IMG/VR virus record: IMGVR_UViG_3300030447_000342 | Source: a virus | DNA: 64,000 bases | Reading direction: 5' to 3' (one strand) | Shown: positions 36,992-53,007 of the stretch, one piece after another | Layout: the number at the start of each line of letters is the position of its first letter | How positions within the stretch are numbered: position 1 is the first letter of the stretch | Notes under the pieces: generated by a model | Seen by the model: the letters and a program-made list of their open reading frames with translations, nothing else | What the model was told of the DNA's origin: nothing | Database searches by the model: none | Position numbers and translations under genes: made by a program

Positions 36992-37212
36992 TCAGCTTTT
37001 CCTCTTTTCTTTAGTTTTTCACCATATTTCGCAAAAAACACAGCAAACGCGAACGGTGCTGCAACAATCCAGAAAACACCTACCATAATATACCCGTCTT
37101 CGAACCCATTATATTTGTTATATGGTTCTACGATAACGTACAAGCGGCAAAGTGCGAATGTTACAATCGCACCAATGCAGAGGTACAGGAGCACTAAAAG
37201 GACTGTCATCAT
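36988..37212 (-). CDS. Hypothetical small membrane protein
   Basis: 74 aa, two TM helices. Confidence 0.35.
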   Translation of the reverse strand: MMTVLLVLLYLCIGAIVTFALCRLYVIVEPYNKYNGFEDGYIMVGVFWIVAAPFAFAVFFAKYGEKLKKRGKAE

Positions 37213-38414
37213 TCCTCTTCACCCGCCTTAAAGTTATAAATCGGCTTGATGATGGCATCAATAGTCACTGTTGGTTCGACATTGTTTACGATATCATCCA
37301 TACCTTTGTATGCCATCGGGCATTCATCGAGCGTGCTTCTTCCAACAGATGTAGTGTAGATACCCTCCATCTGCTTCTTGAACTCAGAAACTGTGAATGT
37401 CTCTTTCGCCGCGCTGCGGCTCATCAAACGCCCAGCTCCATGCGGGGCAGAGAAGTTCCAGTCTTCATTTCCTTTGCCGGTACACAGCAAACTACCGTCT
37501 CTCATGTTGATAGGAATCAGCAGCCGCTCACCAGCTTGTGCAGAGACCGAGCCCTTGCGAAGAATCATATTCTCTACATCGATGTAGTTGTGAATAGTTG
37601 TAAACTGCTCTTCGACATGGAAGCCCATACCCTTAACAATGGTGTCCATCATTGCTTGGCGGTTAAGTTCAGCAAAACGTTGAGCAATTTTCATGTCATG
37701 GATATACTGCTCAAACAATTCTCCCTCAACGTATGCAAGCTGCTTTGGAACTCCCGGCTTCTTCGCCTTCATGCCTTTAAGAACAGATTGGATTTCTTTT
37801 TGTCTTCCAGCCGCTTTTAACTCGTTGACAACCTCCTCGATTTCTTCCTTGGAATACGAGGTTAACGCCTTGAACGCAGCTTCCTGATAGAAGTTAGCAA
37901 TCTCCAGACCAAGGTGTCTACTACCGGAATGCACCACAATATAGATGTGTCCATCATCATCTTTGTTGGCTTCGATGAAATGATTCCCTCCACCAAGCGT
38001 ACCGATGCTTTTATATGCGCGGTCTACATTGACCATCTTTACACAGCACAGTTCCGACAGGTCGATGCTACTTGCATATCTATGAGCTTCTGTGCGAATC
38101 TCGAAACCGGACGGAACTCCTGCACGAATAACTTTGTCCAGCTTCTGCGGTTCGATATGCGTTTCTTTGATACGGATAGTTTCCATGCCGCATCCAATGT
38201 CAACGCCGACAAGGTTCGGGCAAATCTTATCCTTGATGGTCATCGTGGTTCCGATTGTACAACCAGCCCCAGCATGAATGTCTGGCATCATACGGACTTT
38301 GCTTCCCTCGATGTACGGTTGATTCAAAAGATTGATAACCTGAGAGATAGACTCATTATCGACCACGTCGGTAAACACCTTTGCGACGCCAAACTTACCC
38401 TGTAACTCAAGCAT
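37209..38414 (-). CDS. rtcB: RtcB RNA 3'-phosphate/5'-OH ligase
   Basis: MMPDIHAGAGCTIGTT..NLVGVDIGCGM and the HGAGR motif HGAGRLMSR. Confidence 0.85.
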   Translation of the reverse strand: MLELQGKFGVAKVFTDVVDNESISQVINLLNQPYIEGSKVRMMPDIHAGAGCTIGTTMTIKDKICPNLVGVDIGCGMETIRIKETHIEPQKLDKVIRAGVPSGFEIRTEAHRYASSIDLSELCCVKMVNVDRAYKSIGTLGGGNHFIEANKDDDGHIYIVVHSGSRHLGLEIANFYQEAAFKALTSYSKEEIEEVVNELKAAGRQKEIQSVLKGMKAKKPGVPKQLAYVEGELFEQYIHDMKIAQRFAELNRQAMMDTIVKGMGFHVEEQFTTIHNYIDVENMILRKGSVSAQAGERLLIPINMRDGSLLCTGKGNEDWNFSAPHGAGRLMSRSAAKETFTVSEFKKQMEGIYTTSVGRSTLDECPMAYKGMDDIVNNVEPTVTIDAIIKPIYNFKAGEEE

Positions 38415-38433
38415 TTGCCCGCCTCCTTTAAGA

Positions 38434-39222
38434 TTAGATTAGCGAAATCTTTTCGCTGTGTCCGCGATAGATACTGTCTGTGGTAAACACATGGCGGATT
38501 AAGCCATCCGTGAGAACTGTTCCGCTGTGAATTGTGTTTTCACAATGGGTCACATACAAATACACTTCATTCGCGCCAGCCTCTTTTAGTGCCTTAGCTG
38601 TAAAAGTGAATGTGCCACCGCGAGAACAAATATCATCGACAATCAGCACATTTCTATCGGCAACCTTTTCTGGGCTCGTCAGTTCCAGCCGTTCAATTTT
38701 CCCGGTGCGCCAGTCTCTATGCTTGATGCAGAACACATACTCTCTACCAGCTTGCGATGAATATCGTTTTGCTGCTCCCTCATCAGGATAGCACAACAAC
38801 ACATTTTTGTCATCCAACTTGTCCAGAGCTTTCTGGATGTGCGGCTGCGCGTCATATACCTTGACTCTGTCAAGCAATGCTGCTGATACATTCGAGTGAG
38901 GGTCATCGACTAACACGTCGTCAAAATCCAGCGTGTTGATAAACTCCGCAAACCATTTTAGCGTAAACACTTCGTCCGCATTTTTTACTCTATCCATTCT
39001 GGCATTTGGAATGTATGGGAGCAGCAAGCGGAGGCGAACGTCCCGGTCATGGTCGCGGATATGATTTACCAGATACCATAGAAGGATGCACTCCTCATCG
39101 CCGTCATACTTCCATGTGATATTGAAGATGCGAGTCATTGAGCCAAACGGATTATACCTGAAAGAGGTTGTACCATCGGGGAACTTTGTAAACTCGACCT
39201 GCTTGTCGTTGACAAGAATCAT
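38434..39222 (-). CDS. Ribose-phosphate pyrophosphokinase homolog (Prs-like; candidate ADP-ribose pyrophosphokinase Adps)
   Basis: Type I PRTase/PRPP-binding loop NVLIVDDICSRGGT. Prs-like N-domain. Confidence 0.75.
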   Translation of the reverse strand: MILVNDKQVEFTKFPDGTTSFRYNPFGSMTRIFNITWKYDGDEECILLWYLVNHIRDHDRDVRLRLLLPYIPNARMDRVKNADEVFTLKWFAEFINTLDFDDVLVDDPHSNVSAALLDRVKVYDAQPHIQKALDKLDDKNVLLCYPDEGAAKRYSSQAGREYVFCIKHRDWRTGKIERLELTSPEKVADRNVLIVDDICSRGGTFTFTAKALKEAGANEVYLYVTHCENTIHSGTVLTDGLIRHVFTTDSIYRGHSEKISLI

Positions 39223-39779
39223 GCCGTGACCCCCTCGTTCTCGATGTTAATCTGGCACATTTTCATTGCCGACAGTGCAGTCTTGTGACTCTCTGGTGTC
39301 ACGCCAGCGCAGCAGGAAGCATCGACCGTAATCTTAACTTCCGGCATAAACGCCTTGAGCAGCAAGGCATTTGAGATAACACAGATATCGGTACAAAGAC
39401 CGACAAGGACAATTTCTTCTATGCCATCACCAAACGCAACTTCTGGATATAGGCGACCAGCAAGTGCTAATGAACCAAACGTTTTCTTCTCGAAACCATT
39501 CATCTGGTCATCCGCTGGATGCTTGCTCTGAATTGCTGCTTTAACTGAGCTATGAATCTGCCAGCCATTACTTGCAGATATACAGTGTTTTACCGGCAAC
39601 AATCTTCCTTCTTGCGTTTCGAGGTAATCATCAGAATGGGTGTCTTGTGTCCACAAAACTTCCCCATCAAACTCTTCGATTTTCTTGACGACCTTCGGCA
39701 CAATAGCCTGTGCCTCTGGTGTCCCGAGCGTACCATCAATAAAGTCGTTCTGCATATCAACGACAACAAGAACCTTCAT
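39219..39779 (-). CDS. Isochorismatase-family cysteine hydrolase (PncA-like nicotinamidase candidate)
   Basis: VVDMQNDF, the conserved Lys FEKKTFGS, and the catalytic Cys in GLCTDICV. Confidence 0.7.
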   Translation of the reverse strand: MKVLVVVDMQNDFIDGTLGTPEAQAIVPKVVKKIEEFDGEVLWTQDTHSDDYLETQEGRLLPVKHCISASNGWQIHSSVKAAIQSKHPADDQMNGFEKKTFGSLALAGRLYPEVAFGDGIEEIVLVGLCTDICVISNALLLKAFMPEVKITVDASCCAGVTPESHKTALSAMKMCQINIENEGVTA

Positions 39780-39934: not shown

Positions 39935-40216
39935 TGAACTCGCCTCCGGTTCTCAATTTGCCGACCGCTTTCCGCATGGGGCGTGATTGTTACAGAAGCC
40001 CCATGTGCACAAAGTGACATTTTTAGCAAGCAATTTCCGGGTTATTATTTTTATTCGCTGAATAAAAATTATAACCTCGGAAATGCGAGGCTAAAAATGA
40101 AGAACTCAAATCTTTTCTTCTGCTTTAAGCGAGAAGATACTACACGTTTTGCTGAGACATATGTATGTAGTCAATCTTCAAAGCGGTCTTTATCACAGCG
40201 GTTATCCGCTTATGTT

Positions 40217-40771
40217 TTAGGTCACAATACGTCTCCCATCCATGCTCAGGAGCTGTGCAAACGCCTCGTCTTCCTCTTGCTGCTTCTCCACCTCATCATT
40301 CTGGATAGCCACAAACACGACACTGCACATACCGATGAGGTCATCGATGGAGAAATCCTCTTCCTCAATGGTTTCGTCTTCGTCTGGTTCCTCTTCAAGA
40401 GAGTCGAGGAAGTCGTCATCTGCATCGGCGTACTCTTCATCTTCCTCTTCTTCGTCGTCCCATGCGCCGTAGTCATCGCCCCATTCGAGGACATCCTCTT
40501 TGTAGTCTTCGAAGTCATCGTCATCGAGACCATCATAATCAAAGGCGCTGTTACGACGGTAGTAATAGTACCCGCTGGGGAGGTTGCCAAGGAAGTCTCG
40601 GATGTCCCTCCAGCCGTAGTCGGCGATAGCATCGCGGATATCTTCTTCGACGCTGTCATCGTAATCATCATCGTCATAGATGTCCTCACAGACATCGCAG
40701 TCAAAGTCGTTGCAAAAGTCTTTCAGTTCACACCACTCAGTGATATTGTCAATAAATTCATTCCTTGTCAT
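40217..40771 (-). CDS. Extremely acidic (D/E/Y-rich) protein; candidate DNA mimic or anti-restriction protein
   Basis: 184 aa with long runs such as DDDDYDD, EEEEDEEYADADDD and EEEPDEDETIEEED. Confidence 0.5.
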   Translation of the reverse strand: MTRNEFIDNITEWCELKDFCNDFDCDVCEDIYDDDDYDDSVEEDIRDAIADYGWRDIRDFLGNLPSGYYYYRRNSAFDYDGLDDDDFEDYKEDVLEWGDDYGAWDDEEEEDEEYADADDDFLDSLEEEPDEDETIEEEDFSIDDLIGMCSVVFVAIQNDEVEKQQEEDEAFAQLLSMDGRRIVT

Positions 40772-40774
40772 GTT

Positions 40775-41257
40775 TTAATCCTCCATTTCCACTATTTCAG
40801 TTGAGACCCTAACGAGCTTGGACAATGCTTTTTCTGTCAGGAACGCATATTGTACGCCAAGCTGCGTACTGGTTAACTCTTTTCGCATTGCTGTAGCCGC
40901 CACGTCAATCGACACATTGCTATTTCTCAGCTTTGTAAATTTACTTTTCAAATTACTTCCTCCGCCAGCCATATATCCGATTACCAAATCGACATTTGGA
41001 GCGGTGCCGAGCCTTGAAGAAACCACGAACCGAAGCCAGTCCTCAGACCTTTCATCAAACTCCAGAACAGAGAGTCCATCCAAGTCTGTGAGCAGATATG
41101 TTTGGACATATCCCACCCGAGAGTTTTTAACTGCCATCGGCAAGGCATCGAAATAATTTTTGGCAAGATAAAAGCCGCATCCGAAATCTCGGTGCGGCTT
41201 ACACTTGTTCAGGGTTGGTACATCGAAATCTGCCGGAGTACCGTGATACAGATACAT
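40775..41257 (-). CDS. Hypothetical protein with an N-terminal L-Y-H-G-T motif
   Basis: MYLYHGTPADF: an HGT motif of the type seen in H-Y-E-class ADP-ribosyltransferases and Tpt1/KptA. Otherwise unassigned. Confidence 0.4.
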   Translation of the reverse strand: MYLYHGTPADFDVPTLNKCKPHRDFGCGFYLAKNYFDALPMAVKNSRVGYVQTYLLTDLDGLSVLEFDERSEDWLRFVVSSRLGTAPNVDLVIGYMAGGGSNLKSKFTKLRNSNVSIDVAATAMRKELTSTQLGVQYAFLTEKALSKLVRVSTEIVEMED

Positions 41258-41278
41258 GGCAACCCTCCTCTATAAAAT

Positions 41279-41355
41279 TGGTCTGGGTGAGAGGACTCGA
41301 ACCCCCGACATCTTGCTCCCAAAGCAAGCGCACTACCATCTGTGCTACACCCAGA
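41279..41355 (-). tRNA. tRNA-Pro (anticodon UGG), CCA encoded
   Basis: Cloverleaf parsed by hand. Anticodon loop TTTGGGA closed by CTTGC/GCAAG. T-loop TTCGAGT. 3' CCA. Confidence 0.8.
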
Positions 41356-41383
41356 TATAATGGTTTTGTTTCCGAACACACAC

Positions 41384-41444
41384 GCACTACTGATGGGTTC
41401 GAACCATCCTCACCATAAGCATCGCCATCAATGCTTAGTAGTGC
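41384..41444 (-). ncRNA. Aberrant 61-nt tRNA-like element: acceptor stem and T-arm present, only one internal arm, no CCA
   Basis: GCACTAC..AGCA[ttgatggcga]TGCT..GATGG TTCGAAC CCATC..GTAGTGC. Too short for D-arm plus anticodon arm. Confidence 0.3.
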
Positions 41445-41482
41445 GTGCCGGGGCAGAAAGGAAAACGGATATGTCAGTCCGT

Positions 41483-41558
41483 TGGAGCTGGTGACAGGGC
41501 TCGAACCCGCAACCCAGTGAGTACAAATCACTTGCGCTACCAATTACGCTACACCAGC
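41483..41558 (-). tRNA. tRNA-Thr (anticodon UGU), CCA encoded
   Basis: Anticodon loop TTTGTAC closed by AGTGA/TCACT. Acceptor GCTGGTG/CACCAGC. 3' CCA. Confidence 0.8.
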
Positions 41559-41602
41559 GTGCACCCTCGTCTTTCCGAGGTGTCAGCTTTTAGCTAAAAG
41601 GC

Positions 41603-41671
41603 TGCTGATGACTGGACTTGAACCAGCGGCTCGCACTTCCGGTGCTGCTCTACCAACTGAGCTACATCAGC
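41603..41671 (-). ncRNA. Aberrant tRNA-like element with a truncated anticodon arm (4-bp stem, 5-nt loop), 1-nt variable region, no CCA
   Basis: Normal acceptor GCTGATG/CATCAGC, D-arm GCTC AGTTGGTA GAGC and T-arm GCTGG TTCAAGT CCAGT. The anticodon region GCAC cggaa GTGC cannot form a 7-nt loop. Confidence 0.3.
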
Positions 41672-41785
41672 ATAGATACGCCCTGCGCCCGTAGGACTCC
41701 GTGTGCACCCGGCTGTGTCTCTTACAGAGATAACAGTTGAGTGATGAACTAACCGTACAAACGTAAGCATGACCAACAGAGCAGA

Positions 41786-41861
41786 TGGAGCTGGAACTCG
41801 GAGTCGAACCGAGAACCCACGCTGTACGAAAGCGTTACTCTACCAGTTGAGCTATTCCAGC
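41786..41861 (-). tRNA. tRNA-Thr (anticodon CGU), CCA encoded
   Basis: ACGCT TTCGTAC AGCGT anticodon arm. T-arm CTCGG TTCGACT CCGAG. 3' TCCA. Confidence 0.8.
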
Positions 41862-42020
41862 ATAGATGCCATCCTGAAACTATGGCGATGTCATTAACAC
41901 CACCAATACAAACTCACTATGATGGCAGTTTTGATAGCGTGAAAGGAGAATCATGGATAAATCATCGTGGCACAAGGGATTGCAGGGATAGAAAACAAGC
42001 TCTAATGCCGAAGATGATTT

Positions 42021-42095
42021 TGGCAGGGGCAGTAGGATTTGAACCTACGAATAACGGAGTCAAAGTCCGCTGTGTTACCGCTTCACCATACCCCT
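42021..42095 (-). tRNA. tRNA-Gln (anticodon UUG), CCA encoded
   Basis: GCGGA CTTTGAC TCCGT anticodon arm. D-loop AAGCGGTAA. Acceptor AGGGGTA/TGCCCCT. Confidence 0.75.
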
Positions 42096-42213
42096 GTATC
42101 TGCAGGCTCATGCAGCGGCGTCCCGCCAAACCAACCTGTAACCGACTTCCAGAGCAGGCTCTGACGTGTCGTAAAGGCATTTCCTTTAACGCATAATTTA
42201 ATGGTTTCTTACT

Positions 42214-42290
42214 TGGAGCGGCGTACCAGACTCGAACTGGCACCACCGGTTTGGAAGACCGGAGTGCTAACCGTTGAACACCAACACCGC
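42214..42290 (-). tRNA. tRNA-Gly (anticodon UCC), CCA encoded
   Basis: CCGGT CTTCCAA ACCGG anticodon arm. 3' GCTCCA. Confidence 0.8.
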
Positions 42291-42476
42291 ATGGTCGGCT
42301 TCTCGCTTAGATTGTCACACGCTACCGGCAACTACGCTCCGAAAAGTCGTAGCCCCTATTCCGTCAGGTCAAACCGGTCTTGACGCATCAAGACAAGCGC
42401 AGTTTTCAGCAAGCATTTTCATTCTTTGTGAGGTAAGCCGATAATCTCTCACATCAGTTGGGAGCTACCCAACAAC

Positions 42477-42552
42477 TGGCAGGGGTGAATGGATTCGAAC
42501 CACCATCTGACGGTTTTGGAGACCGCTATGTTAGCCATTGCACCACACCCCT
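42477..42552 (-). tRNA. tRNA-Trp (anticodon CCA), CCA encoded
   Basis: GCGGT CTCCAAA ACCGT anticodon arm. Acceptor AGGGGTG/CACCCCT. Confidence 0.8.
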
Positions 42553-42642
42553 TGGCGGAGTGGACAGGACTTGAACCTGCACATCCTTTCGGATTACTCA
42601 CGGTTTAGCAAACCGCTGCCTTACCGTTAGGCTTACCACTCC
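42553..42642 (-). tRNA. tRNA-Ser (anticodon GCU), long variable arm, CCA encoded
   Basis: GCGGT TTGCTAA ACCGT anticodon arm. Long extra arm. Directly abuts tRNA-Trp. Its 5' end overlaps the stop region of the downstream CDS by ~10 nt. Confidence 0.8.
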
Positions 42643-43314
42643 ATCGGGATTACTTTATTATACAGAGCAATAAACTGCTCATTGACCTGCTTGTCCACAT
42701 GATAATGTCCAAAGAACCACCGCTTGAATGTGAGGTCGGAACAAACCCTATCTAAAAAGCTGACCATCGGGTCGTTCTCGTACCAGCTTGCGAGCAGAGT
42801 CTGAACACTCCTTGGCGCACAATGTGTAATTACATAGTCAACTCGCCAATGATTTTGTTCGAGCGCTGCAATCGCTCGTTCCATTTCTTCTCTGGACGGC
42901 ATTTCCTCTTTCCACCATGAGATATGTTCCACGCGATACTCTTTATCAACAGAGCGAGCACCGCCCATGCAGAAGATTTTCTTTCCATCAATCGTGAGCA
43001 CCTGCCCTCTGTCCAGATGATAGATGTCAGGAGCGATTTCACGCACCTTTCCGCCAAATTTGTCAATCAGCGGGAACTGGTAGAGCATATCAAAGTTCTC
43101 ATGGTTGCCATCAATCCAAAGTGTCGTGAAGTTTTTCGCTGTCAGCCAGTCTTGCCACCACATCTCTCGATGCGAACCGTCCCAGCAGAGTCCAAAATCG
43201 CCACATATGATTACGAAATCATTCTTCGTCAATTCCTTTTGTTGTGGGAACTTTGTTGTATTAAGCTTGGCAATATCAATGTTTGCGTGTGTATCTCCAG
43301 TGACATAAATCATG
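42633..43314 (-). CDS. Calcineurin-like metallophosphoesterase
   Basis: MIYVTGDTHAN, ICGDFG and GNHEN metal-binding motifs. AAAGGAA RBS before the Met at 43314. Confidence 0.65.
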
Positions 43315-43579
43315 CTCAGTTCCTTTCTCATCTGCAGTCCATATGTATATTCTGTTCTGGTCTCTTCGTTTATCTCCTGTAGCGACGGGATTTAGATGAG
43401 CTGAAAGCGAGTTCAAATCCCAAGCGGCGATGATGAAATCATTGGGAGACAATGGGTTCGACAGTCGCTCATCGGATGGAGATGACAAGACATCCCGAAT
43501 AGTTTTAATGAGCTGTACAGCGAGCTTAGGCGCCTTCGCAGCAGGCTGCGGGCGGGGAATTGTGCTGTCCAGCAAAGTG

Positions 43580-43630
43580 ATACTTCAGCCTTTGGCGTGA
43601 AGCACATTCCTTACGAAATGTTATTCACTG
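43580..43630 (-). repeat. Copy A of the conserved two-hairpin RNA-like motif, ~300 nt downstream of the RT gene
   Basis: Minus strand: CAGTGAATAA-[ACATTTC GTAA GGAATGT]-GC-[TTCAC-G-CC AAA GGC TGAAG]. A GNRA-tetraloop hairpin followed by a GCC/GGC-capped hairpin. Confidence 0.6.
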
Positions 43631-43735
43631 CAAATGATAATTTGATTATCCTGTAATCTACATTGAGGTAGCTCCCTACGAGGAGGAGCTCCGGCACCCA
43701 GTGACTGGCGTGCGACATCTTTTGGTCGTCTCGTT

Positions 43736-43762
43736 GAATCCATTGTGGCACAATGGATTCAA
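43736..43762. other. Perfect 12-bp hairpin with a 3-nt loop, inside the structured non-coding region between motif copies A and B
   Basis: GAATCCATTGTG gca CACAATGGATTC. Confidence 0.5.
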
Positions 43763-43861
43763 GTGATTCGGGCTGCTCACCGGTGGTTCGCAGCCTCGAA
43801 GGATGACTTGAGTCTGCAGGTGAATGCGCCTCCGGGGAGGTTTTCCTCCCTATCAAGTTGT

Positions 43862-43912
43862 TACTTATGCCTTTGGCGATAAGCATTGCTTTCGCAATTA
43901 TGCATTACAGGA
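43862..43912 (-). repeat. Copy B of the two-hairpin motif, 20 nt downstream of the RT stop codon
   Basis: Minus strand: CTGTAAT-GCATA-[ATTGC GAAA GCAAT]-GC-[TTATC-G-CC AAA GGC ATAAG]-TAACAA. Confidence 0.6.
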
Positions 43913-43932
43913 TTGCGGGTTATTTATAGACG

Positions 43933-45069
43933 TTACCGCAGGTCGTCCTTCATCATGCGGATTACATCCACATTCATTTTCTTGTTGATGTAAGCTACAA
44001 TTGCGTCGATGGTCTCTTTTTCGACCATACGATAATAGCTATGCAGACCATACATTACCTGTACATCATTCCGCTCCCAAGCGACACCATTGTTCTTATC
44101 TGTGATGTAATTGTACAGCATTGACTGGAACTGCTTTTTCTTTTTATGACCGACCGTAATCTCGTTGTCCTTATTCAGCATAACGCCAAGATTCCAGTTG
44201 CGCCCCGCTGATGAACCATACCGAGTCTTGCTTGCATTGATTGTGAATGGGGCACCAAAACTGCTCAATGTACTTACTACCAGCTCTTCAACAGAGCGAA
44301 CATCAAAATCATACTTGGATGAAATAATGAAGTCATCCGCATATCTGGTATAAATGAAGCTCTGTTTTTCAAAATTACGGAGCGTATTCGACAGTTTGAA
44401 ATCAACCGGAATCATCATTACGTTTGTGATGAGCGGTGAAATTGGGGTGCCCTGCGGTAGCCCACCATTTAAGAACGCTAACGACATAGCTGTCCGCAAT
44501 GCTGCCTCGCCCTGTGGCTCTTTTACAATCTCACTAAAAGGAAAAACCATCGAGAACATTGAGATGGCATAATCCAATGTTGTGCTGCCAAAAAAGTCGT
44601 GCAGGTCAAGCTTTGCGAACCATTTGCTGCTGTTCTTCTGGTGACGCTTAACCGCATCGACTGTACTCCGCTTCTTTACATAAGCAAACGCGGCAGTATG
44701 ATAGAGTGCATGGAAATCATCCTCGAAAATCGTTTTGAGTCTTCTCAAGGCGTCCATCAGCTCTGCCTTTGGCGCATCGATTCTACGAAGACCACCAGAT
44801 TTCTTTGGGATGTAAAAGGTCTCATACAACTCGCTCCGTTCCTTTGCACGAAGCTCTGCTGTATCGTTATTAAATCGCACGAGTTTTCCGATTAAAGCTT
44901 CAACACCAATCTTGCTGGAAAAATGTTCACTGACATTTTCGACCTCGTATGTTCTTGTGTTTGCAATATTGGCATTGACAACCGGAGGTGTCTGATAGTT
45001 TTGAAACAGGTACTCTTCCAGTGTCATCTGATGATAAATCGGTGACTGCCTAACAGTGATATAGACCAT
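43933..45069 (-). CDS. Reverse transcriptase. Retron/group-II-like RT motifs, no maturase or endonuclease domains, and no DGR-type SQ motif.
   Basis: FYIPKKSGGLRRIDAP (RT motifs 1-2). AYVKKRSTVDAVKRH (region 2a, NAxxH-like). LDLHDFFGS (motif A). LPQGTPISPLITN (motif B', QGxxxSP). YTRYADDFIISS (motif C, YADD). FTINASKTRYG and NLGVML (motifs 6-7). AAGGAGG RBS. Confidence 0.8.
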   Translation of the reverse strand: MVYITVRQSPIYHQMTLEEYLFQNYQTPPVVNANIANTRTYEVENVSEHFSSKIGVEALIGKLVRFNNDTAELRAKERSELYETFYIPKKSGGLRRIDAPKAELMDALRRLKTIFEDDFHALYHTAAFAYVKKRSTVDAVKRHQKNSSKWFAKLDLHDFFGSTTLDYAISMFSMVFPFSEIVKEPQGEAALRTAMSLAFLNGGLPQGTPISPLITNVMMIPVDFKLSNTLRNFEKQSFIYTRYADDFIISSKYDFDVRSVEELVVSTLSSFGAPFTINASKTRYGSSAGRNWNLGVMLNKDNEITVGHKKKKQFQSMLYNYITDKNNGVAWERNDVQVMYGLHSYYRMVEKETIDAIVAYINKKMNVDVIRMMKDDLR

Positions 45070-45095
45070 TTCTTCCCCTCCTTGTCCAATAACTA

Positions 45096-45104
45096 ACTGT
45101 AACC
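45096..45104. repeat. Short inverted repeat ACTGTAACC, just upstream of the RT start, complementary to the CGTTACAGT segment of motif copy C (a1/a2-like)
   Basis: rc(ACTGTAACC) = GGTTACAGT versus CCGTTACAGT at 45429-45438: 8 of 9 nt match. Confidence 0.3.
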
Positions 45105-45388
45105 TACATATGTCTGCTGCTTCCCAGAATTCCTAAGTCTGAAGACTACGTCGTCCCTGTGGGAGGTGGTGCGAGCTCTTGCAAGATGCGAGATTTTTTT
45201 TCTTTGATTTCATTGCGACTGAAAGCATGAGTCTGATGTTAGCACATTTCGTCCTTGTATCGAAGATTTGGCGAAAAGTGCTTGACATTTGGTTTGCTTT
45301 ATGGCGTGATGCTGCCGACCCGTGGCAGCCGGTTTGCTTTCAGGGTTCCACCGCGTCATCCTCCGGGGGTCATCCTCCCGACAATTTG

Positions 45389-45439
45389 TTACTTTAGCCT
45401 TTGGCGTAAAGCTCTCTTACGAGAAAATCCGTTACAGTC
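45389..45439 (-). repeat. Copy C of the two-hairpin motif, ~320 nt upstream of the RT start
   Basis: Minus strand: CTGTAAC-GGATT-[TTCTC GTAA GAGA]-GC-[TTTAC-G-CC AAA GGC TAAAG]-TAACAA. Confidence 0.6.
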
Positions 45440-45441
45440 TG

Positions 45442-45462
45442 TGGCGCATTAAGGCTGCGCCA
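45442..45462. other. Perfect 7-bp hairpin whose loop contains the stop codon of the upstream gene, immediately 5' of motif copy C
   Basis: TGGCGCA ttaaggc TGCGCCA. The TAA stop (rc of tta at 45449-45451) lies in the loop. Confidence 0.5.
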
Positions 45463-46255
45463 TACCTAATAATTCAAACAGTTCTTCGTCCGTAAAGACA
45501 TTTTGAGTTGTGAATGGCTTGATGAAAAACACGCCGTCCTCTCGTTGTTCGACAATCGTGTCAGGGCTCAACGTGCACACCGGTCTTACCCCGGAACAGC
45601 TTGATGCTGTCAGCCTGTTTAACACACCAGAGCGATTCGAAATCGCCGCTCTTTCGGTCTCAACATCGTCTAACAGCCAGAAGCTCATAAATCCACGGTC
45701 TGAATCAAGCCCTGCATAACGAGCTTTCAGGTCGAACAAGTCGGCTGTCGGATTCGGACGAATGCCTTTTCTTTTGAATAAGTCAAAGCGCCGCCCATCT
45801 TGGAGGCTAAAAATGTCTGCAATTGATGGTAGGCGAATCAACGAAGACACTCGGTTCTCTCCGACCACATACTCTTTCCTAACCAAAGAAGCAATCTCGT
45901 GGTCTTCAAAGAAATACAGAAACCCGTAATGGTCTTCATAGCGAGCATAACTATACCTCACAAAGGCACCGGGCGAAGAATCATTATCGTGCATTGCGTG
46001 ATACCACATCATCTGGTCACTGTTCAAGAACGAAAACAGATTTGACACTGGATACTTCGCATTATTAACACGCCTATAATGCCCAGTCTCTTCCGCCGCA
46101 TCGAAGCACAGGTAGTCGATAGCTTTTTCTGTGATAAAATCACAGTTTGGATTGCCTTTCAGCCAAACAATCGGGTACGGGTTGTCTTTGTCCACACCGT
46201 ACTTGCCCATCACGAGTTGTGCGCCAACCTTGAGAGCACCAACGGTCGTGTCCAT
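45449..46255 (-). CDS. Hypothetical protein (268 aa) immediately upstream of the RT-associated non-coding region
   Basis: ORF with a good start context. No recognised motif. Not a detectable DGR variable protein (no VR/TR pair found). Confidence 0.45.
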   Translation of the reverse strand: MDTTVGALKVGAQLVMGKYGVDKDNPYPIVWLKGNPNCDFITEKAIDYLCFDAAEETGHYRRVNNAKYPVSNLFSFLNSDQMMWYHAMHDNDSSPGAFVRYSYARYEDHYGFLYFFEDHEIASLVRKEYVVGENRVSSLIRLPSIADIFSLQDGRRFDLFKRKGIRPNPTADLFDLKARYAGLDSDRGFMSFWLLDDVETERAAISNRSGVLNRLTASSCSGVRPVCTLSPDTIVEQREDGVFFIKPFTTQNVFTDEELFELLGMAQP

Positions 46256-46288
46256 ACCTTACCCCCCTCCCTTCGTTCTTTTTGAAAA

Positions 46289-46966
46289 TTAAAACGCATC
46301 CAGCAGCGGCTGGAATGCGTCACAAATAATCAGCTTATTCAGCCCCTTGCCCCTGATGTACTTGACGAAGTTGCTCACACCCAGAGCACAAATCACTCTG
46401 ACCGTAGTGACAACACCAAGCGTAATGCCGCAAGCTGAGACTGGAGTTTCTTCCGCCGCCTCATCGTGTGTAAAATTCATGGAGTTGAGGAGGTCTTTCT
46501 TCATCTTGTAGTCAGACCAATCAGCAGCATAGTGCTGACCAGCCTCCAGCAGAGTTCTGAAATCAAACATCGCCTTTACATACGGATTGTCGAAGTGTTT
46601 CTCAACAATCTTTTTTCTCAGCTCGATGTTATCAACGCACAAGAACACATAGCCGGATAACTGCTGCCCGTTCCACCCATCCTTGTAAAGCTTCAGGTCA
46701 TCCTTAACATCAGGATTGATGTCGAAAAGAATATCCGCCAATGCCTCGACCTTAGAGCGCCCAATGTCCTGCTGACGGAAAATCTGATTTGCCAGATTGT
46801 GCGGACTTACTGTGTCCATATCCCACAGTGCGATGTTCGTGAGTCCTAAGCGAACCAGTAGCTCCGCAACCGTCGCGCCGACAGAACCACACCCGACGAT
46901 ATGGATTCTACAATCAACCTTCTCGGGCTGGAAATATTCATAGCTCTTTGACAGGTCAATAGCCAT
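46289..46966 (-). CDS. E1-like ThiF/MoeB-family adenylyltransferase
   Basis: Rossmann motif RIHIVGCGSVGATVAELLVRLG. LWDMDTVSPHNLANQ (D.D.V..SNLNRQ-like). Confidence 0.7.
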   Translation of the reverse strand: MAIDLSKSYEYFQPEKVDCRIHIVGCGSVGATVAELLVRLGLTNIALWDMDTVSPHNLANQIFRQQDIGRSKVEALADILFDINPDVKDDLKLYKDGWNGQQLSGYVFLCVDNIELRKKIVEKHFDNPYVKAMFDFRTLLEAGQHYAADWSDYKMKKDLLNSMNFTHDEAAEETPVSACGITLGVVTTVRVICALGVSNFVKYIRGKGLNKLIICDAFQPLLDAF

Positions 46967-46967
46967 A

Positions 46968-47900
46968 TTACTTACCTCCTAAGTATGCATAAGGGTCGTA
47001 GTCATCTTCGTCTTCCCAGCCATGCATTGATTCTTGGCAGGCATTCTGTCCATGCCAACCAGCGCCAATTCTGGTTCTGGGTTTCTCTCCCTCGTTCTTT
47101 TTACCAGATGACTTATCCTTGTTTTCTTCTTTCTTACTGTCCTTCTTGTCGTCGGACTTACCTGCAAGTGGATTGTACGGAGTACCAGCCGGAGCTCCCC
47201 TGTATCCCTGATTGTAGTAACCGCCGTATCCGCTCTGACCGCCATACGCATAGGACTTTGACTTCACCATATCCTTCGCGTTTTTGATAAACTCATCAAG
47301 TCCTTCATTCTGACCGATAATCTTGACCGTGATATCTTTATCCTCAAACATCACGTTCTTCTTGAGGTCATAGATTTTATTTGTGCTTGCAAATGACTTG
47401 TTCCAAATCATAAAGATGTAGAAGTCATTATCGCCAAGCATCCCGAGGATTTCCTCTTGATGATTGAGGTCAACAGAGGATGGAGACGTACCCATATTTA
47501 CATGAGAATGTCCCTGCATATAGATGTGGTTGAAACGCTCATCTTCGATGTTTTCCTGAATCCACAGAGCATATTTCTCGGTGTCCATCTCAACCGTTGC
47601 GCCGGTTACCTCCTGCGGATAGACAACGATGTCATCGATGACATACTCGTCAAGCGATTCATCTTCAGTTCGACGTGCGACACCATGCCATGCGACCTCT
47701 TTATCGAACTCTTTGATAAGCATAGTCATCTTTGCCCACGCCTCTGCGCTGAAGTAAACTACTGCCTTTCTGTCACCACATGAGAACGCTTTGGTAAAAG
47801 AAAGCTTTCCATCCGAGAGCTTTGTAAGTGACAAAGCCTTCTCAAAATCTTGACGGCACTCATCAATGAGTTCCTGCGTCAACTTAATTGGTCTGCTCAT
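46968..47900 (-). CDS. JAB/MPN (JAMM) metalloprotease-domain protein with a low-complexity G/Y/K-rich C-terminus ending ..YLGGK
   Basis: JAMM motif HIYMQGHSHVNMGTSPSSVDLNHQ (H-x-H-x7-S-x2-D) with an upstream Glu in AWHGVARRTEDE. Confidence 0.65.
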   Translation of the reverse strand: MSRPIKLTQELIDECRQDFEKALSLTKLSDGKLSFTKAFSCGDRKAVVYFSAEAWAKMTMLIKEFDKEVAWHGVARRTEDESLDEYVIDDIVVYPQEVTGATVEMDTEKYALWIQENIEDERFNHIYMQGHSHVNMGTSPSSVDLNHQEEILGMLGDNDFYIFMIWNKSFASTNKIYDLKKNVMFEDKDITVKIIGQNEGLDEFIKNAKDMVKSKSYAYGGQSGYGGYYNQGYRGAPAGTPYNPLAGKSDDKKDSKKEENKDKSSGKKNEGEKPRTRIGAGWHGQNACQESMHGWEDEDDYDPYAYLGGK

Positions 47901-49377
47901 TTTGCGCCTCCTCCGTCTGCTCATCCTTTGCCTCCTGCTCATCAAGCCATCTAATTGCTTCGTTCGGCTTTACAACGCGACCATCTGGCAACTCAATACA
48001 ACGACTGACCGTGTTATTTGACCACATGGTTCTCATAAACTCGCCCATAACTGCACTGTCGCCGAAGTTCAGACTCTTACAGGACGCAATACACTGCTCA
48101 AGTGCACCGATATAATTTCGTTTTCTCAGCAGTTCATTGATAGTCCTGCTGTAATTGCCCATGCAATGATAACGGTCAATATGCGTATTAGGCATATAAC
48201 CATCAAATGTGTAATCAGAAAAATCACCAGTCTGCGCAGAAACACTACCATTCAGGTCGAATCTATATGCTGCGCAAAAGCGGATTCTAAGCCGAGGATT
48301 TTCACTTACGAAAATCTCCTGCATCAGCTTCTGCATTTTCTCTGAAGCTGCCGCATTGTGACCGTTGCCACCATCCGGTCGATACACATAACTGCTTCTA
48401 TTGTTGATTGCTCGCTCAGCCATATCTCTGTCAAAGTATTCAAGGTAGTCTTTAACCGAGAAATACATATCCGTATTGCTAACATGAGACAGGACAAGTC
48501 TGTTGTTGCAGAGGAAATAATCCATGATTTCAGAGTCTCCACCGCCCTCTGCAATTCTTTGCTCAAGTCCCAACAATCTGATGCACTTGTCATTGCGGCG
48601 CGACAGATACGCGCCGATAGAATCATTGAGTCGCTGAATCTCCATGTCAATAGATTGGATTTCATTGCGAACAGTATCACATTCGATGCGCTCATATCTG
48701 GTTTCAAAATCACCCAGTAACTGACGAATCCGCGCTGTTCTGAAATCATATCCCTCGGCAAGCTTTGCAATGCACTTCTCATAGTTTGCTGAATTTGTTT
48801 CTCGCAAAGATTGCATCAATGCAAGCTCATCTTCTGTCAAACCATCATCCTGATTCAGATACCACGGCATGAATGCAAGAATAGATACCTGAAGATAATG
48901 CATTTTCTTAACATCAAGATTGTCAACGAAGACAATCACCGACTTCTTGTCAGGGTTGATATAACAATCAACATTGAATGACTTCCGATAAAACGCTTTG
49001 ACCTTATCAAGACGGTGATACTCTGGGTAGATAGAAGTAAACTTGTCCTCCACAATCTGCATACAAGCCAGATTGCTATTTTGGTCAGCATTGAAGCTAT
49101 GAACTATGAGCGCACCGCTGGCATTCATTTGATAACTGCTACAGATAGCACTAACCGCACGTTCTGCTGGAACGTTACGGATAGTGTTCCCATCATAATT
49201 GGTCGAACCGAAAGTCAGGTAAACACTTTCGTCCTCTTTGATTCGAGGTGCAACCAGTGCACGAAGCGTTGAAAGGAACGAACAGTCATTGCCAAAATAG
49301 CTTCCGGTAATGTTCTGAAAAAAGCTATTAGCCGCCTCTGACGTAAACGGTGTCGATGTAATGCTTGTCTTGAACAC
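47884..49377 (-). CDS. Hypothetical protein (497 aa), first gene of the JAB / E1 / 268-aa / RT string
   Basis: Long ORF, no motif recognised. Overlaps the JAB gene start. Confidence 0.5.
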   Translation of the reverse strand: MFKTSITSTPFTSEAANSFFQNITGSYFGNDCSFLSTLRALVAPRIKEDESVYLTFGSTNYDGNTIRNVPAERAVSAICSSYQMNASGALIVHSFNADQNSNLACMQIVEDKFTSIYPEYHRLDKVKAFYRKSFNVDCYINPDKKSVIVFVDNLDVKKMHYLQVSILAFMPWYLNQDDGLTEDELALMQSLRETNSANYEKCIAKLAEGYDFRTARIRQLLGDFETRYERIECDTVRNEIQSIDMEIQRLNDSIGAYLSRRNDKCIRLLGLEQRIAEGGGDSEIMDYFLCNNRLVLSHVSNTDMYFSVKDYLEYFDRDMAERAINNRSSYVYRPDGGNGHNAAASEKMQKLMQEIFVSENPRLRIRFCAAYRFDLNGSVSAQTGDFSDYTFDGYMPNTHIDRYHCMGNYSRTINELLRKRNYIGALEQCIASCKSLNFGDSAVMGEFMRTMWSNNTVSRCIELPDGRVVKPNEAIRWLDEQEAKDEQTEEAQNEQTN

Positions 49378-49403
49378 AGAAACACCTCAATTCATTTTTA
49401 TCT

Positions 49404-49488
49404 TGGTGGGGAATATCGGATTTGAACCGATACGGCATACGCCAACAGAACTTAAATCTGTTGTGTCTTCCAATTCCACCAATTCCCC
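49404..49488 (-). tRNA. tRNA-Leu (anticodon UAA), long variable arm, CCA encoded
   Basis: ACAGA TTTAAGT TCTGT anticodon arm. Extra arm GGCGTATGCCGTATC. Confidence 0.8.
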
Positions 49489-49530
49489 ATGAAAAGAGCC
49501 GCCCCATGAAGGGCGGCTCTAATCTAAAAC

Positions 49531-49758
49531 TTAGGCGTTGTCCGCCTTAACGACATTCAGCAGGAAGCACTTCTCGGTAATGCCGAACTGCTGGAAGGTC
49601 TTATCGAGGTCGCCGGGGTTCAGAGAAGAACCATCGAGGTGCATGACACCACGAGTGTAATCAACGCCGTTTGCCTCAAGGCAGGAGCGCAGGGTGGTAT
49701 TCTCATCGATGATGACAGCCTCACGCTTAACATTGTTGCCAACAGTAACCTTAATCAT
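49531..49758 (-). CDS. Hypothetical small protein
   Basis: 75-aa ORF between tRNA genes. Confidence 0.35.
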   Translation of the reverse strand: MIKVTVGNNVKREAVIIDENTTLRSCLEANGVDYTRGVMHLDGSSLNPGDLDKTFQQFGITEKCFLLNVVKADNA

Positions 49759-49831
49759 TATGTATTCTCCTTTTATTCGTTTTTTGTTTTTTGGGTGGTG
49801 GGGCGGCTATGCCGCCCCGTTGCAGTGTCTC

Positions 49832-50230
49832 TTACTGAGCGACAGTGATGTTGCTCATCACGGTTGCCTTCTCAGCCGCAATCTCTTCGAGAACAGTGGG
49901 GAGCTTCTCTTCGAGCTTGTTGAGGTTGATGATGGCAGCGCCGAGGCGGTCAGCGACCCAATCCTTCACATCGCCGGTAACACCGTCGAGGAACAGGGTG
50001 ATGCACGCCAGCTTGTCATCGTCACGGGTCTCGGAGCCGAAGGATGCGCCAACTGCGTTGATATTGCCTGCACCATGAGTGGTGCCGACACCGAAGATGG
50101 GCTCCTTGCCATCCTCGCCGCCCTTCAGGACGAGCTCCTTGGGACGATACTTCTCGATGGTCTTGATGTCCTCAAGCTTCATTGCGGAAGTGACGACGAC
50201 TGCGTCGCCTGCGATAACGATTTTTGCCAT
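49832..50230 (-). CDS. Hypothetical protein
   Basis: Probable start MAKIVIAGDA with an AAGGAG RBS. GC-richer segment. Confidence 0.4.
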   Translation of the reverse strand: MAKIVIAGDAVVVTSAMKLEDIKTIEKYRPKELVLKGGEDGKEPIFGVGTTHGAGNINAVGASFGSETRDDDKLACITLFLDGVTGDVKDWVADRLGAAIINLNKLEEKLPTVLEEIAAEKATVMSNITVAQ

Positions 50231-50404
50231 GTGTATGTACTCCTTGATTTCAAATGTACCCCTATTAGTTCGTCTTACGACTATCCGCCCACACCACGAG
50301 GAGGTTGGAGCCATTGTGGACATAAAACCACTGAAGCAACTGCCCCAGTGGTTATGGTTTTATCTTGCACCACTTCCGTGGTGCTGATACTTTTGATACA
50401 CAGA

Positions 50405-51064
50405 TTAGAAACTGAAAGCCGGGGCGACGCCACAGGAACTCCTTGCGCCGTTACGGTCCGCGCCGCCGTTCGCGCCCACACCGCAGAAGGCGCCGCTGAT
50501 GCCGTAACTAGGAGAACGCAGCATAGTGTACTCAGCGGAACCATTACGCTTCTTGCCCCAAGGGACATCTTCTTGCCGGTAATATTCGTACCAATGACCT
50601 TCGCCCGGTGCCGAATAGATGTTCCGTCCAAAGGTTTCTTTTTCAGACTTAATCCAAAACTTGCACTCCGTTTCGAGCAATTCGTTCGCTCCGTCATAGG
50701 TGTTTGCAGTAAGCTTGATTACTGGTTCGACCACCTCAAGAATCTCGTCTGGCATGAGCTGGTAAATTACGCCATCTTCGTCGTTCATCTTATGGAACAG
50801 CTCTGTTGCACCCCAAGAGCCTCTGTTTGTGTCGTTGCTATTCCAACGATGCCGGTTTGGAAGGCAGTCAACCATCTCCCAAGTTAGTGGGAGGATACGA
50901 CCACTTTTTGTAACATCGTGTTTGAATCCAATGATACGGAACTGAACCAGTGTATCGTCTTTTAATCTGACGTTTTTGAAATCGCCTAATCTAAGGAAGT
51001 CGGGTGCCATATCCCCAAGCCCCTTCAGCGAACGCCACGGCATATTATCCAAACATTCAGGCAT
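50405..51064 (-). CDS. Hypothetical protein
   Basis: 219-aa ORF. Confidence 0.45.
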   Translation of the reverse strand: MPECLDNMPWRSLKGLGDMAPDFLRLGDFKNVRLKDDTLVQFRIIGFKHDVTKSGRILPLTWEMVDCLPNRHRWNSNDTNRGSWGATELFHKMNDEDGVIYQLMPDEILEVVEPVIKLTANTYDGANELLETECKFWIKSEKETFGRNIYSAPGEGHWYEYYRQEDVPWGKKRNGSAEYTMLRSPSYGISGAFCGVGANGGADRNGARSSCGVAPAFSF

Positions 51065-51092
51065 ATGTTACCTCCGTCCATAATCATTTAGT

Positions 51093-51182
51093 TGGCGGGG
51101 AGTGTAGGATTCGAACCCACGGACGGCTTTCACCGCCAACGGTTTTCAAGACCGCCACCATAAGCCACTCGGTCAACTCCCC
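51093..51182 (-). tRNA. tRNA-Ser (anticodon UGA), long variable arm, CCA encoded
   Basis: GCGGT CTTGAAA ACCGT anticodon arm. Acceptor GGGGAGT/ACTCCCC. Confidence 0.8.
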
Positions 51183-51199
51183 AAATAAAAAGAGACGGG

Positions 51200-51862
51200 T
51201 CATTCGCCCGTCTCAGTCTCAGTTTCATCTTCTTCATCTTCCGGCTCATCCACGCCATCGATATCATATTCATCATACGGAAACTCTGTAAAGACTTCAC
51301 AGCCGCTTTCTTTTTCCGTTATAATCATCGGTCGATAGATATGGAAACCGTAATCTTCTGAAAGCTCTTTCAAAAATCCATCAAGGATTTCATCGACAGC
51401 TTCATAGCCATACGCTTCTAAGATATTTGTTCCGTCGTTGTCACCCTCCTGCAGCGCGATTGCGAGGAAATCTGCCATAGCCAAACGGAGTTCATCATCT
51501 CGCTCATACATAGCATCCTCTATGTCCATCCATGTTTCATCGCTTTCTTCTTTGCCGCCATCTGGATTATCTCCCGGAACATACTTGTTGTCTGTAATCA
51601 CAACAGGAAAGAGATAGCGTGTGTAGAATTTCTTCGACACCGCTGTACAGTCCTCCTCACTCACGCAAGGTTCTTTGTACTCAATTTTTTCGTTGCCCTT
51701 TGCAACAGCCAAAACTGGGAGGTCGTTTTCCTCGGTAAGATACACGGCATACTCCGTGTCGGTGTTCTCAGCAATGAGAACCATTTCTTTGTTCAAACGT
51801 TTTCTGCTTGCTTGGAAAAACCCCCATACTGCATCAGCGGGGATATGAATATGAACTCCCAT
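51200..51862 (-). CDS. Hypothetical protein with a highly acidic C-terminus
   Basis: Start MGVHIHIP with an AAGGAGG RBS. The track's longer ORF reads through the tRNA-Lys gene and is rejected. Confidence 0.45.
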   Translation of the reverse strand: MGVHIHIPADAVWGFFQASRKRLNKEMVLIAENTDTEYAVYLTEENDLPVLAVAKGNEKIEYKEPCVSEEDCTAVSKKFYTRYLFPVVITDNKYVPGDNPDGGKEESDETWMDIEDAMYERDDELRLAMADFLAIALQEGDNDGTNILEAYGYEAVDEILDGFLKELSEDYGFHIYRPMIITEKESGCEVFTEFPYDEYDIDGVDEPEDEEDETETETGE

Positions 51863-51888
51863 AAGGAACCTCCTTATATATTTGACTT

Positions 51889-51964
51889 TGGTACTCCCGA
51901 CGAGGCTCGAACTCGTGACCCCAGCATTAAAAGTGCCGTGCTCTACCAACTGAGCTACGGAAGT
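51889..51964 (-). tRNA. tRNA-Lys (anticodon UUU), CCA encoded
   Basis: CGGCA CTTTTAA TGCTG anticodon arm. T-arm CACGA GTTCGAG CCTCG. Confidence 0.8.
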
Positions 51965-52135
51965 ATATTGACCGGCTATTACGGTATGCCCAGAAAGGTG
52001 GACACGCTTGAGTTCCACAAACAGTTTTGCCCGCAAAAGATGGAGGTGAATATTTGATGGAGGTGTTTATCTTAATGCAGGTACGAAGAAAGGAACTTAC
52101 AAATGAACGAAGGACACGCGCATGGCAAAACTGTC

Positions 52136-52219
52136 TGGTGCAGGATAAGAGACTTGAACTCTTACGCCGGAGGCAGCGGGACTTGAATCCGCCGTGTCTG
52201 CCAATTCCACCAATCCTGC
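52136..52219 (-). tRNA. tRNA-Leu (anticodon CAA), type II with a long variable arm, CCA encoded; A:C mismatch closing the anticodon stem
   Basis: GCGG(A) TTCAAGT (C)CCGC anticodon arm. Extra arm CTGCCTCCGGCG. T-arm AAGAG TTCAAGT CTCTT. Confidence 0.65.
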
Positions 52220-52226
52220 ATATTTC

Positions 52227-52427: not shown

Positions 52428-52455
52428 GTTTATACCTCCTTACCAAAGTCATGTT

Positions 52456-52782: not shown

Positions 52783-52804
52783 TGGTTGCTCCTCCTTTTA
52801 TGAG

Positions 52805-52880: not shown

Positions 52881-53007
52881 CATACTTTACGGCATAAAAC
52901 CCAAGTCAACTCCGCCGTTTGATGTTCCCCACACTAATACCTCAATGCTTCGGATTGCATCAATAAGCCTTGCGCTCCGATACCCAAGGAATGAACATCG
53001 TTCCCAC

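Follow-up and report, generated by a model that had tools for sequence, protein, structure and literature searches.

We analysed a reverse transcriptase (RT) gene and the non-coding DNA around it in a 64,000-nt stretch of viral DNA, IMG/VR record IMGVR_UViG_3300030447_000342 (the whole stretch is called the window below). With a probability of roughly 70%, the locus represents a retron-like system of a phage, apparently effector-less, whose single RT serves several template RNAs. The initial annotation had described a 378-aa RT with YADD and QGxxxSP motifs, gene-free flanks of about 600 and 380 bp, and an RT plus non-coding RNA (ncRNA) system with repeated structured modules. All three points were supported. 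The open reading frame (ORF) of the RT is located at 43933-45069 on the minus strand, encodes 378 aa, matches Pfam RVT_1 (E 1e-19) and contains LPQGTPISP and YADD. Its flanks have no conserved ORF over 601 nt downstream (43332-43932) and 379 nt upstream (45070-45448). Mechanically called ORFs of 91 and 99 aa are present there, but their lengths vary among near-identical relatives, and the stop-free runs in the flanks are not longer than expected from dinucleotide shuffles. Repeat finding and alignment revealed three homologous modules in the flanks, which share a core of about 70 nt on the RT strand and start at 45442, 43913 and 43640 (minus strand).

A covariance model of the module core, R1, was built from 18 diverse copies and run on the window with filters off. 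It found exactly four sites, which we call modules A, B, C and D. The covariance-model search suggested in the initial annotation also yielded further sites in about 140 related loci. The order within a module, from 5′ to 3′, begins with an arm a1 (8-14 nt, ending in ..AAU or ..AAC), a conserved G, NAU(A/U) and a hairpin P1. These are followed by a second hairpin P2, with the consensus (G)CUUNN-C-GCC-AAA-GGC-NNAAG(U), and the linker UAACAAYUUG. The second half is made up of a variable interior of 125-280 nt, a tail ..YAUGUAG and an arm a2 that is complementary to a1. The three modules near the RT are 266-351 nt long and all lie on its strand, one upstream (A) and two downstream (B and C).

Module A (45092-45442, minus strand), at 351 nt the longest, lies upstream of the RT in the canonical retron position. 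R1 matches it at 45378-45446 with 68.4 bits (E 2.6e-12). Its arms are at 45442-45431 (a1) and 45103-45092 (a2), with a putative branching G at 45430. P1 (45424-45413, GUAA loop) and P2 (45412-45391, CUUUAC-GCC-AAA-GGC-UAAAG) are followed by the linker UAACAAAUUG, which extends to 45382, and then by the variable interior and ..AUGUAG before a2. The end of a2 is 22 nt from the ATG of the RT, and 18-29 nt from it in relatives. A partial P2-like remnant (CUUUUCGCCAAA) was observed in the interior of module A (45267-45278, minus strand), which suggests that two modules fused or decayed to give this one. Within the RT ORF, the P2 apex motif GCCAAAGGC is found again at 44765-44773 (minus strand), where it forms part of the codons for APKAE. 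It was seen there in the closest relatives only and is probably a coincidence.

Module B (43648-43913, minus strand; 266 nt) is the first downstream of the RT and was matched by R1 at 43850-43919 with 75.5 bits. Its a1 (43913-43904) and G (43903) are followed by P1 with a GAAA loop, P2, the linker, the interior, ..AAUGUAG and a2 (43657-43648). The interior contains a perfect hairpin of 13 bp at 43734-43762, and the module matches the inverted repeats I15 and I4. When orthologues of module B were aligned, the core, the tail and a central CCAUUG..CACAAUGG island were conserved. Module C (43325-43640, minus strand; 316 nt; R1 at 43569-43642, 71.7 bits) is the second downstream and consists of a1 (43640-43627), G (43626), P1 with a GUAA loop, P2, the interior and a2 (43338-43325). 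Its a2 overlaps the ATG (43331) of the neighbouring metallophosphoesterase gene. Module D (24119-24343, minus strand; 225 nt) is an orphan, 19 kb from the RT, and was matched at 24268-24335 with 37.9 bits (E 1.6e-5). It comprises a1 (24343-24336, ACCGCUUU), G (24335), UAGAUUU, P1 (GCUG..CAGC), P2 (CUUUUC-GCC-AAA-GGC-AAAAG), a long hairpin of 12 bp, a G and a2 (24126-24119, AAAGCGGU). This class of module is also present in locus L020 with other arms (AGUACCCGU/ACGGGUAUU). Modules of the same 'G-UAGAUU' class are located 3-4 kb downstream of the RT in loci L012, L020 and L022. The feature had originally been placed at 43332-45462. These flanks are real, but the feature reaches 43325 and has a fourth module far outside that range. 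The GNRA tetraloops reported earlier are present in P1 on the RT strand (GUAA, GAAA and GUAA in modules A, B and C), but they are not conserved in relatives.

The two hairpins of the core are supported by covariation. Over 18 sequences, 96% of the P1 and P2 positions could pair, compared with 28-45% when the partners were slid, and changes on both sides were found at 5/5 P1 pairs and at three P2 pairs. The arms a1 and a2 are wholly different between modules, for example UCUAUGCAAU/AUUGCAUAGA, UGUUACCGUAAU/AUUACGGUAACA and AGCAACCACAAU/AUUGUGGUUGUU. As the arm sequences are unrelated between modules, the changes in a1 and a2 are compensatory. Compensatory variants of the module C arms also occur among relatives (UUUGCAGU/ACUGCAGA, UUUGCAAU/AUUGCAAA and CAUCCGCAAU/AUUGCGGAUG). 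We then counted only perfect helices whose last pair falls on the base that immediately precedes the conserved G. Such an anchored helix of at least 8 bp was found in 56 of 70 distinct modules, versus 2-13 of 70 for anchors moved 3 nt downstream or 7-25 nt in either direction. The result was similar in an independent and more divergent set from metagenome-assembled genomes (MAGs), with 41/58 modules against 3-13/58 for shifted anchors.

The column of the covariance model directly after a1 was a G in 60/66 and about 66/70 aligned modules, and the base directly before a2 was almost always a G. Ec86 also has an unpaired G that faces the branching G and separates a2 from the point where the template starts. 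Retron msr-msd RNAs are characterised by inverted repeats at their ends that pair with each other, a conserved G for branching and an msr of one to three hairpins (PMC7736814). By its sequence, the module array shows what is expected of a retron at the RNA level, namely a predicted a1/a2 helix, an adjoining G and an ncRNA that directly precedes the RT in the same orientation. The initial annotation had held that the architecture does not fit a canonical retron. That view was not upheld, considering the a1/a2 pair and G of each module, the short distance from a2 to the RT start codon and an RT whose best matches are retron RTs.

The evidence from the protein was as follows. In PADLOC, the best match of the RT was the retron model RT_II-A (6.6e-46), and the matches listed (25 of 64) were all retron RT models. 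The best RT model in NCBIfam was retron_St85_RT (175 bits, 2e-51). The other models scored far lower, with 86 bits for group II (cut-off 300), 42 bits for Drt2 (cut-off 390, 7e-11) and 31 bits for Drt3a. The closest sequences in the PDB were those of the retron RTs Ec83, Ec78/Eco7, Ec67 and Ec86. An AlphaFold2 model of the RT had a mean predicted local distance difference test score (pLDDT) of 95.7. When this model was used in a Foldseek search, ranks 1-12 were all retron RTs, with template modelling (TM) scores normalised by target of 0.41-0.86, or 0.71-0.86 when only stand-alone retron RTs were counted. RTs of other kinds came later (DRT9 at rank 21, DRT2 at rank 24 and the RT of a diversity-generating retroelement (DGR) at rank 31). 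The YADD motif is at residues 243-246, and H143 and G295 are invariant in the family alignments. Pfam detected RVT_1 only, with no maturase or endonuclease domain, and the N-terminal 65 aa or so form an extra domain. By hidden Markov model matches and predicted fold, the RT appears to belong to the retron or retron-like lineage as a divergent member.

To examine the distribution of the system, 60 IMG/VR loci and 79 loci in GTDB genomes were fetched, about 140 in all. At E <= 1e-30, the RT family comprised 440 clusters (50% identity). The GTDB loci were mostly from MAGs of Oscillospiraceae, Acutalibacteraceae, Lachnospiraceae and Christensenellales, on contigs of 30-360 kb. In these relatives R1 found a module upstream of the RT, one to three downstream and sometimes further ones a few kb away, and the number of downstream modules differed between relatives. 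Nearly all matches were on the RT strand (76/76 in the MAG set and every locus match in the IMG/VR set). The layout of RT plus modules was retained down to an RT identity of about 43-48%. In the isolate Clostridiales Family XIII PM5-7, a1-G-P1-P2 ... UAUAG-a2 is found 30 nt before the ATG. The exact core pattern occurred in 79 IMG/VR stretches, nearly all on contigs known to bear the RT, with at most four stretches per contig. The modules are homologous, they conserve a1/a2, the G, P1 and P2 with compensatory changes, and their layout is kept over a large phage family.

The interiors of the modules behaved quite differently from the cores. P1 and P2, which resemble an msr, covary, whereas the interior is variable, A/C-rich and composed of multiple hairpins, with long perfect stems in modules B and D but not in A. 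Its composition is asymmetric between the strands (C 0.26-0.30, U 0.14-0.22), being rich in A and C and poor in U and G. We compared 16 loci with RTs that are 99-100% identical. Module A was unique in every one of them. Nucleotide diversity (pi) peaked inside the modules, at 0.20-0.27 in A and 0.12-0.19 in B, compared with 0.02-0.06 in the RT ORF, while the cores and tails, including those of downstream and distal modules, had values of 0-0.05. Within a lineage, the interiors were about 1-3 times as diverse as flanking 4-fold degenerate sites, and pi in the cores and tails was 0-0.04 in this comparison. Over all 16 loci, the value for the interior of module A was 0.223, and the 4-fold sites had 0.119 in the RT and 0.251 in the gene of a 497-aa neighbouring protein (p497). 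The substitution spectrum of the interiors was dominated by transitions, like that of the 4-fold sites. The interiors drift near the neutral rate, in contrast to the strongly constrained cores and tails. We rejected hypermutation and diversifying selection as explanations for the interiors, since near-neutral drift is enough to account for a diversity of 1-3 times that of 4-fold sites with an ordinary spectrum. Between phages with RTs of 70-80% identity the interiors could not be aligned at all. This pattern of evolution matches that of a putative scaffold carrying a replaceable template.

On average, the interiors were predicted to be more structured than shuffled sequences (mean z = -2.8), with values of -7.2 for B and -5.1 for both C and D. 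The hairpin density claimed for both flanks was confirmed for the downstream one (z = -7.7) but not for the upstream one (z = -0.5; module A, -2.0). A conserved structure over the full length of the interior was also considered and rejected. RNAalifold recovered only the a1/a2 helix, P1, P2 and one central hairpin in class B. Apart from the shared P2 motif, no target of the interiors was found elsewhere in the window.

From these sequence features we infer reverse transcription of the modules, a 2′-5′ branch, the start and stop points, the use of modules B-D in trans and a biological role. All modules would be transcribed in the direction of the RT gene, with module A probably part of the same transcript as the RT, and the ends a1 and a2 of each would pair on folding. 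The RT would recognise the 5′ core (P1, P2 and UAACAAYUUG), which may be the counterpart of a retron msr, and the 2′-OH of the conserved G beside a1 would act as the primer. Copying might start at ..AUGUA, which adjoins on the 5′ side the unpaired G in front of a2, and run into the A/C-rich variable interior, a possible replaceable counterpart of the msd. The product would be a branched RNA-DNA molecule (msDNA) with G/T-rich single-stranded DNA (ssDNA), and the four modules could give rise to up to four msDNAs.

Several observations weigh against this interpretation. The score of 175 bits falls short of the 235-bit cut-off of retron_St85_RT. When aligned to Ec83, the retron motif NAKIH is replaced by AVKRH and VTG by NLG. 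Of NAXXH and VTG, only the H (H143) and the G (G295) are kept, both of them family-invariant. These two are the positions that vary least within the NAXXH and VTG motifs of retron RTs (PMC7736814), and their retention counts in favour of the retron reading. A search of 40000-47000 against Rfam (E <= 1) returned tRNAs and noise only and no known msr. The initial annotation had allowed for the possibility that the RT clusters within a known retron type whose msr/msd also matches. This was not borne out, considering the subthreshold score, the Rfam result and the unusual multi-module layout. The interiors, with a length of 150-280 nt, are long and A/C-rich instead of forming a single long msd hairpin, and module A is barely more structured than its shuffles. 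No known retron effector family was detected by Pfam, PADLOC or NCBIfam among the six neighbours scanned. Finally, templating in trans by the downstream and distal modules is an extrapolation, because several, downstream or distant ncRNAs per RT are unreported for retrons in the literature searched.

An unlikely alternative, and the one that survives best, is that the phage, which may be temperate, carries a defence retron of the conventional type. Its msDNA-RT complexes would restrain an effector, the system would exclude competing phages, and the effector would be the cassette upstream of the RT or some unrecognised gene. This cassette (46289-50230, minus strand, in the window) was compared across loci L001-L131. 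Relatives with RT identities as low as 37% nearly all have the order p163 - p75 - p497 - JAB - ThiF/E1 - [module] - RT, and it persists where the identity of p497 is only 21-27%. The E1 matches models of the Cap2 type from CBASS (cyclic oligonucleotide-based antiphage signalling systems). The order of the genes is reminiscent of the Ubl-E2-JAB-E1 operons of the Bil type, in which Ubl denotes a ubiquitin-like protein. Integrase-like genes in the window and a relative in a 428-kb contig of an isolate genome would also suit this alternative. An associated effector gene occurs in about 75% of retrons and is not obligatory. Most retrons are tripartite (PMC7736814).

The cassette, however, does not accompany every RT unit. 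In locus L078, the RT and modules are present without the E1/JAB cassette and lie beside a Pnkp-like RNA-repair gene. All loci belong to one phage lineage, so that the synteny may be inherited genome order. Moreover, p497 matched neither a Pfam domain nor a PDB fold, although its model was usable, and its candidacy as an E2-like enzyme completing a Bil-like system was rejected on these grounds. For p75 (75 aa), the support as a Ubl is limited to a faint DUF2604/Ubl-like match. The scanned neighbours include no known effector family, and no toxin-type effector is consistently adjacent to the RT unit. A functional link between the cassette and the RT unit is possible, but it is weakened by the absence of the cassette from L078, the unmatched p497 and the faint Ubl match of p75, and shared ancestry of the gene order is an adequate explanation. 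In L078 (1-5770 and 7419-8238), the RT unit was seen within an array of about 15 small paralogous ORFs of 85-130 aa, which end in a common ..SxEEELLDLLS motif and are followed by the 755-aa Pnkp-like kinase/phosphatase/ligase.

It is improbable that only the upstream module templates the RT and that the others are RT-independent structured RNAs (regulators or processing/stability elements) or decaying duplicates. Known retrons do have a single ncRNA, upstream of the RT (PMC7736814), and the number of downstream modules varies between relatives. However, the downstream and distal modules keep the core, the G, the compensated a1/a2 and the AUGUAG tail as strictly as module A does. Nucleotide diversity in their cores and tails is as low as 0-0.03, which argues that they are selected for the same features, and modules B and C outscore A against R1.

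Templating of a non-retron kind, as in DRT2 or DRT9, seems even less probable. In this case the closing helix might permit rolling-circle or repetitive cDNA synthesis, giving concatemeric or coding DNA without a 2′-5′ branch. The ncRNA of DRT2 also has a helix that joins the ends of the template. Both systems resemble the present one in pairing an RT with a structured ncRNA and in having no separate effector gene, the cDNA itself being the active product. Stop trinucleotides in the interiors were also fewer than expected from dinucleotide shuffles (318 vs 360). Nevertheless, 15 of 48 interiors were open (stop-free), compared with 12.2 +/- 2.8 in the shuffles, and coding or 'Neo-like' interiors were rejected because this openness is not above that of the shuffles; there is no coding or homopolymer signal in the modules. 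DRT2 and DRT9 belong to another RT lineage, as the bit scores (retron 175, Drt2 42, Drt3 31) and the Foldseek ranks given above indicate, and they lack priming by a1/a2 plus a G. A G immediately following a1 and another preceding a2 are typical of retrons, and the failure of interiors to align between phages whose RTs are still 70-80% identical is a further point against DRT-like templating.

Two other kinds of element were rejected, in agreement with the initial annotation. Phage DGRs likewise combine a phage RT with a nearby non-coding template, but here we found no repeat pair of template and variable regions (TR/VR), no adenine-specific or adenine-biased variation and no accessory Avd. A group II intron was dismissed since Rfam gave no intron match and the RT has no maturase or endonuclease domain.

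If the retron-like reading holds, our guess would be that ssDNA made in abundance during infection serves as a decoy or scaffold, for counter-defence or for competition between phages, and it is a guess that we expect to be wrong more often than right. A role on the side of the phage is preferred to abortive infection because there is no conserved toxin-type effector and the neighbourhood is one of tRNA, RNA-repair and NAD-salvage genes. More specifically, the system might be the phages' own weapon and not a host defence, in which a fast-drifting template array yields several abundant G/T-rich branched ssDNAs as decoys or scaffolds. We put this forward tentatively and hold it to be doubtful. 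The targets might be bacterial immune sensors, nucleases or rival phages, and the Ubl-like/JAB/E1 cassette might cooperate.

The closest known systems are bacterial retrons of types I-A (Ec78/Eco7, Ec83) and II-A (the St85 family). They share with the present system the sequence and fold of the RT, an ncRNA directly upstream on the RT strand, a1/a2, the G after a1, the unpaired G before a2, one to three msr-like hairpins and a template part that is free in sequence. They differ in that here two to four or more ncRNA genes accompany one RT, including downstream and distant ones. The RT of our system has NLG for VTG, AVKRH for NAXXH and the N-terminal extension of about 65 aa. Long A/C-rich interiors stand in place of the single long msd hairpin, no effector is recognised, and the genomes are those of phages of about 100-225 kb, from MAGs associated with gut Clostridia. 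The (msr-msd)-RT cassettes that stand alone in retron clades 2 and 11 (PMC7736814) resemble our system in layout, with an RT and an ncRNA but no effector gene. They differ in carrying a single ncRNA and in being located in bacterial chromosomes. Engineered multitrons and recombitrons, the nearest analogue of the array, combine one retron RT with several arrayed ncRNAs. Those arrays are synthetic, whereas the array described here is seemingly natural and conserved.

In the literature searched, we found no natural retron with an ncRNA array and no retron-like system in large non-model phages. Should the doubtful weapon interpretation be true, the system would be without precedent both as a natural multi-template retron and as a retron with a phage-side function. 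Retrons are understood as bacterial anti-phage systems, each consisting of a single RT, a single ncRNA and a single effector. If the modules are reverse-transcribed, then phages exploit msDNA, which raises the question of what msDNA does on the phage side, and a retron RT naturally serves several templates, also in trans. In that case a compact scaffold, consisting of a core of about 70 nt and a tail of about 20 nt, would tolerate arbitrary inserts of 150-280 nt and would be of direct interest for multiplexed genome editing with retrons.

The same-strand neighbours of the RT unit were as stated in the initial annotation. They are a metallophosphoesterase (42633-43331), a DUF6273-like protein (45449-46255), a ThiF/E1 protein (46289-46966) and a JAB-like protein (46968-47945), all on the minus strand, and further along p497, which has no assigned function. 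The claim that the flanks hold far more non-coding DNA than any other part of this phage was not confirmed. Elsewhere, two stretches that lack both a tRNA and any minus-strand ORF of 50 aa or more measure 583 nt (53088-53670) and 459 nt (55452-55910), and R1 had no match in either. No sigma-70 promoters or intrinsic terminators were found on the minus strand around the modules.

The window belongs to a large, uncultivated phage of the gut, which encodes a DNA polymerase, DnaB, a CCA-adding enzyme, an RNA ligase, RtcB and a DNA ligase, together with NAMPT, a PRPP-synthetase-like protein, a nicotinamidase and 13 tRNAs. No similarity to the window at the DNA level was found in a collection of deposited phages, and the sole relative of the RT in INPHARED was on an unannotated faecal contig (41% identity). 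The RNA-repair and NAD-salvage genes and the 13 tRNAs are dense around the RT unit (15331-16677, 29702-30787, 33017-34291, 35501-39779, 41279-42642 and 49404-53087), and this region looks like a phage counter-defence region. Two integrase/recombinase-like genes were observed at 9895-10845 and 21483-22640 (both minus strand), with matches to phrog_5830 and the serine integrase phrog_95. The relative of the RT unit in the 428-kb contig, L119, comes from the isolate Clostridiales Family XIII PM5-7. Phages of this group may be temperate or may persist as episomes.

A very acidic protein of 184 aa with long D/E runs, resembling a DNA mimic, adjoins a DUF3990 protein (E 7e-25) with a faint ART-PolyVal match (40217-40771 and 40775-41257, minus strand). 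In many relatives the acidic gene is placed between JAB and E1. At 58000-60000, the G+C content jumps to 0.54-0.58 from about 0.45 elsewhere, with a positive GC skew and a strongly negative AT skew, and within this region long ORFs overlap on both strands (58594-60015).

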